DNA of 63,375 nucleotides, filler included, from Porpidia crustulata (taxonomy: Eukaryota), in the NCBI GenBank assembly GCA_964255105.1. It is 6 parts of 6 records of this genome, joined end to end, with 100 filler letters (N's around TTAATTAATTAA, not from the genome) between each part and the next. Parts side by side here need not be neighbours in the genome. Positions count along the whole stretch, not along the records: positions 42,335 to 52,814 come from CAXUWE010000771.1; 5 more parts are not named here. One strand, 5' to 3'. The translations under genes were made by a program, and so were the position numbers. The notes beneath the pieces were generated by a model. The model did no database searches. It was given only the letters and a program-made list of their open reading frames with translations, and was not told where the DNA came from. Below, in pieces: positions 50,201 to 52,705 of this stretch; position 1 is the first letter of the stretch; every line of letters starts with the position of its first letter.

Positions 50201-52705
50201 CCCTTTCCGGGAAAACACCCTTTGCATGGAACTGAAATCGTCCCTGCTGCGGTTTTGATCAATACGTTCTACCAAGGTACCGGGAAGTGTACCTTATTAG
50301 ATATTGTGCTCCACGTGCCAGTGGCAATAAGTGCACCGCGAGACATTCAAGTCATGGCTCAAGAAGGCCAGACCAGGTTGACTTCTCGTCTAATCCAAGG
50401 TGAAGATCAAACTTCGGATGATCAGTCATGGGTCACCCACACCACTTGTCGTTTCGCTACCGGAGAGGCTTTGTTGGCGGATGGCAAGGACGATTTGATA
50501 GATGTTGCTGCCGTCAAGGCCCGCATTGGATCCCAGCTGAAGGATTCATTTTCCATCGACTATCTCAGCGGTGTCGGGGTATCAGCCATGGGCTTCCCGT
50601 GGTCGGTCACAGAGCACTTTGGAAATGAGACTGAAATGGTTGCTAGAATCGATGTTGCCCCAGATGTGGCCGCAGGATCTCCTCTGCCTTGGGACCCTCA
50701 ATCTTGGGCCCCCATCCTTGACGCTGCAACTTCTATTGGCTCCACACTTTTCTTTAGTGAACCCCGGCTCCGAATGCCGGCTCAGGTTAGCAAGGTAGAA
50801 ATATACGCTGATGCTGTACCACCAAAGATTGGCTACATTTATGTTCGAGAGGCCAAAGGTGTCGATCTAGCAGTCAATGTCGACGTTCTTGATGAGCGCG
50901 GCAGGCCACTCGCGAATATCCAGGAGATGAGATTTTCAGAGATTGAGGGCACGCTAGGCGCAAACGGAAGCGTTGAAAGTTTGGTTCATCAACTGTCTTG
51001 GCCACCCGTATTTCTGGCTGAAGAGGCGCTGTCGCTGGGCCACGTGACTTTGGTCTCAAAAGGGAAGGACCTCATAGCAAGAGCCAAGGTAGCTTTGACG
51101 ACTCAAGCCACCACCATCTCGGCATTTCCTTGTGTGCAGGACATTCCCGACGATATAGTGTCCTCAACCATCGCCGGTAAAACGGCAATCCTCGTGTATA
51201 TACCCACTCGTGTCGCATCAATCGACGATGTGTCGGAGGCGGCTGGCATATTCTGTGCGGAGCTCCTCGACATACTCAAATATGCTGTGAAGCTATCCCA
51301 CCCCACCAAAATATTTGTTATCACTGACGGAGTCTCGAATGGTAAAACTCCAACAGCCCTCGCACAGGCTTCTTTACACGGGCTCGGCCGTATTGCCGCA
51401 TCCGAACAGCCAGAGATCTGGGGCGCGCTCATAGACAGCGAGGATGGAGACTCGAGTTTCCCACTTCAAGCGATGAAGTACGCCCAAGGCGTAGATGTCG
51501 TCAGAGTACGTGACGGTGTGGCAAGGGCATCTCGCCTCCGGCGCCTTCCGCGTGACAAAATGCTCTCCCCTGGCCGTAATATGAACTTTCTCCCTTGACC
51601 TGAGGGAACATACTTAATCACCGGTGGCTTGGGCGCACTTGGTCTAGAGGTTGCGAGCTTCCTCGTTGAAAAAGGCGCCAGAAGAATCATGCTAGTTTCA
51701 CGCCGAGCCTTACCTTCGCGCAGCGAGTGGAAGGACCCTAGTGGTCCACTGACAGATATATTTACAGCGATCGAGCATCTAGAAAGTCTTGGGGCCTCAG
51801 TACACGTCGTTTCAGTCGACCTTGGGGCTGAAGGATCGGAGAAACAGCTTCAAGCCGCTATCGATCGCTTGGCGCTCCCACCAGTGCTTGGCGTCGTCCA
51901 CGCTGCAGGTGTGCTTGAGGATCAACTCCTCTTAGATGCCACAGTCGACTCCTTCGAAAGAGTCCTTACTCCAAAGGTTGCAGGAGGCTTGGTCTTACAC
52001 CGGCTCTTCCCAGTTAAATCTGTCGATTTCTTTGTTTTATTCTCCTCCTGTGGGCAGCATTTTGGATTCCCCGGTCAGGGTTCCTATGCCAGTGCCAATG
52101 CCTTCCTCGATACCCTTGCGACACACCGCCGCAACCAAGGGGATACTTGCGTGGCTTTTCAGTGGACGAGTTGGCGCGGGATGGGCATGGCCGCCAGCAC
52201 TGACTTCATCAACGCTGAACTTGAGTCTAGGGGCATCACCGATATCACGCGCGACGAGGCCTTCCGCGCCTGGACCCATCTGGCTAAATACGACATGGAT
52301 CATGGTGTTGTTCTGCGTAGCCGTACCTTTGACCACGACGAGATGCTACCAGTACCTATCCTTACTGATATTGCCGTCCGCCGTCCTGCTGGCCCGGCCG
52401 CAGGTAGAGAGGAAGGTATATCTCCTAAAGCTGCCGAGGCACCAAAATCTGGCCTTGCGCTCAAAGAGTACCTTGATACCAGACTACGTAAGTGCGTTGC
52501 CGAAACGCTGCAGCTGGCGTCGGCCGACGACGTGGATCCAAAGGTGGCGCTGTCAGACTTGGGCATGGACTCGGTGATGACGGTCACGCTAAGGCGCCAG
52601 CTTCAAAAGACTCTTGGTATCAAGGTGCCACCAACGCTTACATGGTCTGCCCCGACTGTGTCACATATGCAGAAATGGTTTATGGAGAAGATGGAAAAGC
52701 AGTAG
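47202..52705 (+). pseudogene. 6-methylsalicylic acid synthase-type partially reducing iterative PKS (KS-AT-TH-KR-ACP), interrupted by one in-frame TGA at 51596-51598
   Basis: KS DAACASS/HATST/GHLEAGAG; AT GHSVG; TH HPLHGTEIVPAA; NFLP*PEGTYLITGGLGALG (KR); YASAN; ACP LGMDSV. Both halves are in the same frame. Confidence 0.85.

Follow-up and report, generated by a model that had tools for sequence, protein, structure and literature searches.

An in-frame TGA ahead of the ketoreductase domain of a 6-methylsalicylic acid synthase-type gene in Porpidia crustulata

The 63,375-nucleotide stretch of DNA analyzed here (the window) comes from the Porpidia crustulata assembly GCA_964255105.1, and one of its pieces (42335-52814, record CAXUWE010000771.1) carries a polyketide synthase (PKS) gene of the 6-MSAS (6-methylsalicylic acid synthase) type, accompanied by a cytochrome P450 gene and a cupin-domain gene. 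The PKS frame is interrupted by a single TGA directly ahead of the ketoreductase (KR) domain. We infer a loss of function and a young age for this event from sequence, and regard the gene as very probably a 6-MSAS-type PKS with a true nonsense mutation of young age, on a contig whose three genes are otherwise intact.

A PKS gene divided by an in-frame TGA

We modelled the PKS gene as two exons separated by a short intron (Table 1), which gives a spliced model of 1819 codons, namely 1818 and the TAG of its true end; this is its only TAG, TGA occurs once, and TAA is absent. For the predicted exon 1 the only similarity, a weak one, is to the N-terminal ends of P0009 (E 0.026) and P0007 (E 3.1). 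When the frame was read through with X at the stop, Pfam placed ketoacyl-synt at residues 26-274, Ketoacyl-synt_C at 282-399, Acyl_transf_1 at 563-876, KR at 1417-1607 and PP-binding at 1709-1771, and PKS_DH_N at 922-1005 with 26.4 bits, just below the cut-off of 27; the search returned no further catalytic domains in the read-through. The resulting order of ketosynthase (KS), acyltransferase (AT), DH/TH, core, KR and, lastly, acyl carrier protein (ACP), with neither ER nor C-MeT, SAT/PT or TE, is that of 6-MSAS-type enzymes, and KS-AT-THID-KR-ACP is the domain set of 6-MSAS and ATX according to an extract of PMC4797705 (all papers are cited here from extracts).

The TGA lies in the sequence TTT CTC CCT TGA CCT GAG GGA ACA TAC TTA ATC ACC GGT GGC TTG GGC, which begins at 51587. 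It closes a stop-to-stop frame of 1413 codons (47357..51598), and the next frame, of 368 codons (51599..52705), is in the same phase, such that the junction reads ...NMNFLPXPEGTYLITGGLG... with X at the stop. The Pfam matches to KS, AT and DH_N precede the stop, while KR starts three residues behind it and PP-binding lies at the end. For comparison with relatives we aligned 26 homologs, picked from the at least 120 matches listed and spanning 57-82% identity, together with the window sequence (27 rows). The column of the stop holds R in 23/26 homologs and K in 3/26, and a stop or gap in 0/26. The stop stands at this position in the consensus of the reads (see below) and is absent from the relatives. 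The sequence-only reading of this DNA had described the TGA at 51596-51598 between two frames in phase, had taken LPRPEGTY as the normal reading and had placed KR and ACP behind the stop, and the frame scan, alignment and Pfam search bear out each of these points. Frames of at least 150 aa number 34 in the window, and besides the PKS frame just one of them precedes a long open reading frame (ORF) in the same frame; we regard long homologous frames on either side of one stop as not a chance pattern. The window's own predicted protein, P0122 (1403 aa), stops at the TGA, and in the protein collection the allele is present once, from one contig recorded there at exactly 10,480 bases, with the next relative 82% identical.

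The catalytic columns are invariant in all 27 rows, window included (C196, H331, H371, S649, H954/H957, G1423/G1424/G1426, S1563/S1564, Y1577, N1581 and S1739), and the motifs of KS, AT, TH, KR and ACP are all kept. We take these to be the KS Cys/His/His, the Ser of the AT GHSxG motif, the His of the TH/DH HxxxGxxxxP motif, the glycine-rich loop and Ser/Tyr/Asn of KR, and the Ser of the ACP DSV motif. A polypeptide with all of these domains is not encoded without interruption, as the TGA at codon 1450 comes before KR and ACP, and on its predicted product we file the PKS as a pseudogene or null allele of the 6-MSAS family, not as a working member.

The closest relatives are full-length proteins of 1733-1836 aa with 82-71% identity, among them proteins from lichen metagenome-assembled genomes, and the best named ones come from the lichen-forming Lecanoromycetes Letrouitia, Usnochroma, Heterodermia and Lobaria. 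Characterized mould enzymes from A. terreus, A. clavatus and Penicillium, which bear the name 6-methylsalicylic acid synthase in their sources, have 59-61% full-length identity, and the JGI relatives 57-58%. FastTree groups the PKS within a clade of lichen-fungus homologs. By these comparisons we class the gene as a 6-methylsalicylic-acid-synthase-type, partially reducing, iterative PKS of a lichen-forming (Lecanoromycetes-like) fungus; such genes are common among lichen fungi (PMC2636887, extract). One 70% identical relative, P0148 (1280 aa, 4 member sequences), aligns to about residue 1148, continues with about 130 unrelated residues and has no KR or ACP; it may carry a frameshift or a mis-called intron, and is perhaps another decaying copy of this PKS family.

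Table 1. Features of the PKS contig and its borders, in window positions; those of the PKS domains were converted from P0001
Feature	Position	Strand	Basis or remark
Artificial spacer, left end of PKS contig	42235..42334	.	N runs 42235-42278 and 42291-42334
Cytochrome P450 gene, PatI/AtE type, several exons, intact	42366..44361	-	Pfam p450 on three exon frames; tblastn
Cupin-domain gene, three exons, intact	45038..46062	-	Collinear with P0207, P0210 and P0213 over all three exons
PKS exon 1 (predicted)	47202..47366	+	55 codons from ATG
PKS intron (predicted), 47 nt, GTGAGT...CTAAT...AG	47367..47413	+	Phase check: spliced coding sequence of 5457 nt, divisible by 3
PKS exon 2 before the stop: KS 47432-48553, AT 49043-49984, DH/TH-like 50120-50371, linker/core	47414..51595	+	Pfam
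Premature TGA, codon 1450 of the spliced model, Arg/Lys position in relatives	51596..51598	+	Frame scan, alignment, Logan contig of run X1
PKS part behind the stop, still open: KR 51605-52177, ACP 52481-52669, natural TAG 52703-52705	51599..52705	+	Frame scan, Pfam
Artificial spacer, right end of PKS contig	52815..52914	.	Layout identical to left spacer

The base, the genetic code and the decoding of the TGA

Among the three public runs listed, one, X1, contains the stretch, with all sampled words (212/212) present; the remaining two belong to the same study and to different organisms, and matched it just in part, over 33-79 bases. None of the runs listed for the stretch is recorded as RNA. 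In the Logan assembly of X1 a 9,901-base contig with a word depth of 10.3 covers 42875-52775 with 0 differing letters and 0 gaps, and 151-base records in the Logan contigs suggest short reads. Because this independent re-assembly of X1 agrees over 42875-52775, an assembler error at the TGA is unlikely. A base-call error, which the sequence-only reading had listed as an option, is weakened by the second, difference-free assembly of the reads, with which a systematic read error is still compatible. The T at 51596 could then stem from an error in the reads or their consensus, or from a somatic variant of minor frequency, in a living fungus that has an intact gene: a single sample was sequenced to moderate depth, and 51596 falls within the short inverted repeat TCCCTT/GAGGGA, repeats of this kind being linked to raised short-read error rates. 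However, the two assemblies agree over 9.9 kb without one difference, and a consensus error would require the same wrong base in most of about 10 overlapping reads. We hold such an artefact to be very unlikely. Elsewhere in the PKS gene, at 47716-48250, the KS region is matched by three 151-base X1 records of depth 2, each of which has 18-26 differences and none of which touches the stop; they suggest that the sample contains another, related PKS at about one fifth of the depth, as a paralogue or in another fungus.

Several ways around a plain stop codon were considered. An intron across the stop was ruled out, as the flanks align residue by residue and gap-free to 26/26 homologs. A changed genetic code was likewise ruled out: 14/34 long frames in the window end in TGA, and of these only the PKS frame is then followed by a long ORF in the same frame. 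TGA also ends the ORFs for an RdRP (1010 aa), a His_Phos_2 protein (498 aa) and a GH65 protein (784 aa), in all of which the Pfam match ahead of the TGA is complete or long, and the PKS itself has 26 TGG, 92 Arg and 1 TGA codons. Since TGA ends other long fungal ORFs and occurs once in the PKS, the genetic code is standard. Reassignment of UGA, or its use for selenocysteine, is not borne out either, as the long frames of the window give no sign of UGA as a sense codon elsewhere and the PKS contig has no Rfam match at E<=1; the window also has no tRNA gene that could act as a suppressor, and selenocysteine machinery is absent from fungi, as an extract of PMC4207609 has it. A separate start for a KR-ACP protein was rejected because the first ATG behind the stop (51689) falls after the glycine-rich NADPH motif of KR.

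The other split frame in the window (11275-13215, minus strand) belongs to an FHA-forkhead gene with one in-frame TAA. There the Forkhead profile continues across the TAA, which lies in about 60 nt bounded by GTAAGG...CAG, and we read this TAA as part of an in-frame intron, not as a lesion.

A further possibility is that the UGA is usefully decoded, either by leaky termination with a near-cognate Arg, Cys or Trp tRNA or by an A-to-I edit of 51598 to UGG, yielding full-length synthase at a low level or at particular stages from a stop kept by selection. We consider such a recoding switch extremely improbable. Of the stop codons UGA is the most permissive, and in yeast read-through is highest with C at +4, as here, a base that also favours Cys-tRNA (PMC4748822, extract). 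Trp, Cys and Arg are the residues inserted at UGA (PMC4150775, extract), so part of a read-through product would carry the ancestral Arg. Behind the stop the frame is open throughout and retains every KR and ACP motif. On the other hand, the fungal read-through core is UGA CU(A) (PMC4207609, extract) whereas the context here is UGA CCU, of which only the +4 C fits, and the stop occurs in 0/26 aligned relatives. The 111 nt from 51590 to 51700 fold no better than shuffles (z 0.10; 103/200 shuffles fold as well), and no Rfam match was found on the PKS contig at E<=1. Neither a conserved stop nor a stimulating context or downstream structure, by which programmed read-through is recognized, was thus found.

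The editing variant fares no better. Its one structural argument is that the 6-bp inverted repeat UCCCUU/GAGGGA at 51591-51607 leads, in the minimum-energy fold, to a 5-nt hairpin loop that contains the G and A of the TGA, and fungal editing prefers loops (PMC13431901, extract). The restorative editing described for fungi, however, is one of UAG only, in sexual tissue (PMC10776026 and PMC7306014, extracts); the machinery behind it goes back to the Sordariomycetes ancestor and originated independently in Pezizomycetes (PMC10776026). Of the A edited in N. crassa, 96.7% come after a T, with TA sites edited 21.8-233x more often than AA, CA and GA sites (PMC13431901, extract). Here the codon is UGA, the A at 51598 follows G, and the kinship with Lecanoromycetes, judged from best hits, lies outside both editing lineages; an edit to UGG would moreover put Trp at an Arg/Lys position. 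The A-to-I option of the sequence-only reading accordingly finds no footing at this site, which departs from the described editing in codon, preceding base and host lineage.

A milder form of the same idea holds that the UGA-C stop is tolerated or kept as an attenuator, with a few percent of ribosomes reading through with Arg, Cys or Trp tRNA, such that the thallus has small amounts of full-length synthase, some of which bears the original Arg. We see only a very slim chance of this. If true, an aromatic polyketide pathway that is costly to run would be kept going at low output without being lost, and it would be unusual for a megasynthase to be dosed by read-through. A certain background leak is likely on the codon context; a selected switch is not supported by the comparisons made here.

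Neighbouring genes and the layout of the window

The P450 and cupin genes are the only other genes of the piece that holds the PKS. The P450 gene, with a predicted start codon at 44361, is collinear with residues 13-526/526 of P0150 and 25-533/533 of P0151 by tblastn; its stops are confined to the predicted introns and its heme-binding stretch is present. Sources name its relatives m-hydroxybenzyl alcohol hydroxylase, patI or atE. Several of these relatives lie on a contig of the same recorded size as the 6-MSAS homolog of the same species, and in Xylographa the locus tags are adjacent, which we take as a sign of conserved linkage between P450 and 6-MSAS. The Cupin_2 match of the cupin gene is weak (20.7 bits against a cut-off of 27.2), and its family assignment is backed by Atlas neighbours (Cupin_2 clusters) and 152 representatives at E<=0.001. 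Both genes had been called intact beforehand, and their collinearity with full-length relatives confirms this; the intact state of both tailoring genes fits a recent hit on the synthase. No decarboxylase gene was found on the 10.5 kb PKS contig. Taken together, the trio of 6-MSAS, PatI/AtE-type P450 and cupin indicates that this lichen clade has an early pathway module like that of patulin or terreic acid.

The window is a chain of separate contigs joined by artificial N44-TTAATTAATTAA-N44 linkers (a six-frame stop linker). These spacers begin at 10489, 21073, 31655, 42235 and 52815 and are each 100 nt long (e.g., 10489-10588, 21073-21172 and 31655-31754), and the pieces between them measure, in size order, 10,484, 10,482, 10,480 and 10,480 bases. 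Because the window is made of separate contigs, physical linkage to the PKS is limited to 42335-52814. The RdRP, RICTOR, GH65, forkhead and further genes of the window are on other contigs, and gene order across spacers is artificial, which bears on any other finding from this window. The next contig has a 1010-aa open frame (53775-56807, minus strand) with a full RNA-dependent RNA polymerase domain (RdRP, PF05183), unlinked to the PKS; the family is that of the cellular RNA-silencing enzyme. A 10-N gap is also present at 3036-3045.

Origin, age and comparison with known systems

How might the TGA have arisen? Arg is probably the ancestral residue at codon 1450, and we infer its ancestral codon from the one-step routes from Arg to TGA, which are only CGA (by transition) and AGA (by transversion). 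Among the 92 Arg codons of the PKS, AGA is the commonest (23) and CGA accounts for 14, and the observed/expected ratio of CpG on the PKS contig is 0.92, with no sign of CpG decay. A CpG transition from CGA to TGA, which the sequence-only reading had favoured as the simplest origin, is therefore plausible, as one of two one-step routes.

The rest of the PKS is without a detectable lesion, as had been claimed. In a tblastn search, P0002 (1771 aa) gave a single high-scoring segment pair in one frame over 47396-52699, covering residues 1-1770 at 82.4% identity with 1 gap opening; neither this collinearity nor the codon count of the spliced model, with one TGA in 1819 codons, revealed a second lesion. 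Where every other sequence has the same residue, the window differs at one column before the stop and at two behind it (K>R and L>M), within the 0-15 before and 0-8 behind of the intact homologs. The terminal branch of the window, estimated for each part on a fixed FastTree topology, measures 0.155 before and 0.127 behind the stop (0.090 and 0.070 for its sister P0002); normalized to the tree, its behind/before ratio is 0.97, within the 0.45-1.67 of the 26 homologs. In relative-rate counts against P0002, restricted to sites where P0003, P0004 and P0005 agree and comprising three tests with uncorrected p values, unique changes in the window and P0002 number 45 vs 39 before the stop (p 0.51) and 63 vs 45 overall (p 0.083). 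At columns where at least 23/25 others agree, the window and P0002 depart 11 vs 4 times before and 5 vs 3 times behind the stop.

The absence of a second stop also sets a rough limit on age. Of random substitutions in the PKS coding sequence, 3.0-3.6% yield a stop, and since no second stop occurs in 5.4 kb, the neutral divergence since inactivation would be roughly below 1.7% (3/180 per unit divergence), an estimate that counts substitutions only and takes the whole gene as neutral since inactivation, and that indels would tighten.

These data are best accommodated by a simple sequence of events. At codon 1450, an Arg codon (CGA or AGA) would have become TGA through one base substitution, and translation would then end three codons before the KR domain. 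The predicted product would keep KS, AT and the DH/TH-like region and be without KR and ACP; lacking a carrier domain, it should be unable to build a polyketide, which would make the allele null. The event is probably young, because nothing else in the PKS or in the two linked tailoring genes has decayed. Among the three options that the sequence-only reading had ranked, a recent null allele likewise came first, and we concur with that ranking.

Several observations weigh against a young null allele. The allele comes from one contig and one public run, and X1 may be the record's own source data, in which case the re-assembly rules out a slip of the assembler while leaving room for a systematic read error; minor alleles, moreover, are hidden in contigs. 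The leaky UGA-C context may allow a little full-length protein. Behind the stop (51599-52702), unique changes number 18 in the window vs 6 in P0002 (p 0.014, uncorrected), and if this asymmetry is real, "very recent" would understate the age of the stop, and the front part would still be under constraint. The asymmetry is weak, and neither the branch ratio of 0.97 nor the conserved-column count of 5 vs 3 repeats it. In our reading the relative-rate counts hint, weakly and not robustly, that the lineage of the window is somewhat faster, and are no evidence of decay.

The same asymmetry is what a retained truncated enzyme would predict, in which the KS-AT-TH product keeps or gains a role, for example with a carrier and a reductase acting in trans, while the KR-ACP part drifts. 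It appears only behind the stop, no second stop lies in the 4.3 kb before the TGA, and the ID/core region needed for ATX subunit contact precedes KR (PMC4797705, extract). However, the signal comes from three uncorrected tests and is absent from the branch partition and the conserved columns, the KR and ACP motifs are all intact in a downstream frame free of lesions, and a separately started KR would be crippled, given the position of its first ATG. We rate a retained truncation as highly improbable. To our knowledge, no stand-alone KS-AT-TH activity has been described.

If the TGA indeed marks a young null allele, its mechanistic import is small, as the loss of a cluster usually begins with one nonsense mutation in a secondary-metabolite synthase. 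In practice, counts of biosynthetic clusters in lichen metagenomes should treat this PKS as broken; in the public protein set it appears as a 1403-aa KS-AT-DH fragment.

How does the locus compare with known systems? It resembles the restorative-editing genes of Sordariomycetes in being an otherwise intact gene with one in-frame stop in a filamentous ascomycete. Those genes, however, are corrected from UAG to UGG in sexual tissue, at an A after U and at stops common to related species, whereas the PKS has UGA with A after G, Lecanoromycetes-like relatives, an ancestral Arg in place of Trp, and no relative with the stop. With the UGA CU(A) read-through of fungal and animal metabolic enzymes (PMC4207609, extract) it shares a UGA followed by C; unlike in those systems, the second base is C and not U, and the stop lies inside a catalytic protein, not at a C-terminus ahead of a targeting signal, and is not conserved. 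The mould 6-MSA synthases, namely ATX/AtX of A. terreus (P0081) and the 6-MSAS/PatK type of Penicillium and A. clavatus (P0092, P0097 and P0093), have domain order and catalytic columns in common with the PKS and likewise no ER, MT or TE, and a P450 of the PatI/AtE type is linked here. In contrast to them, the frame described here is broken before KR, the host is of a lichen type and the nearest relatives are 82-71% identical.

Natural nonsense and frameshift alleles of secondary-metabolite synthase genes occur in fungi, and a broken synthase gene is thus a known kind of event; a limited literature search found no account of a broken 6-MSAS in a lichen. The PKS is like those alleles in that one disabling point mutation sits in a large synthase while the cluster is otherwise intact, and nothing essential sets it apart from them, the present case coming from a poorly sampled lineage.

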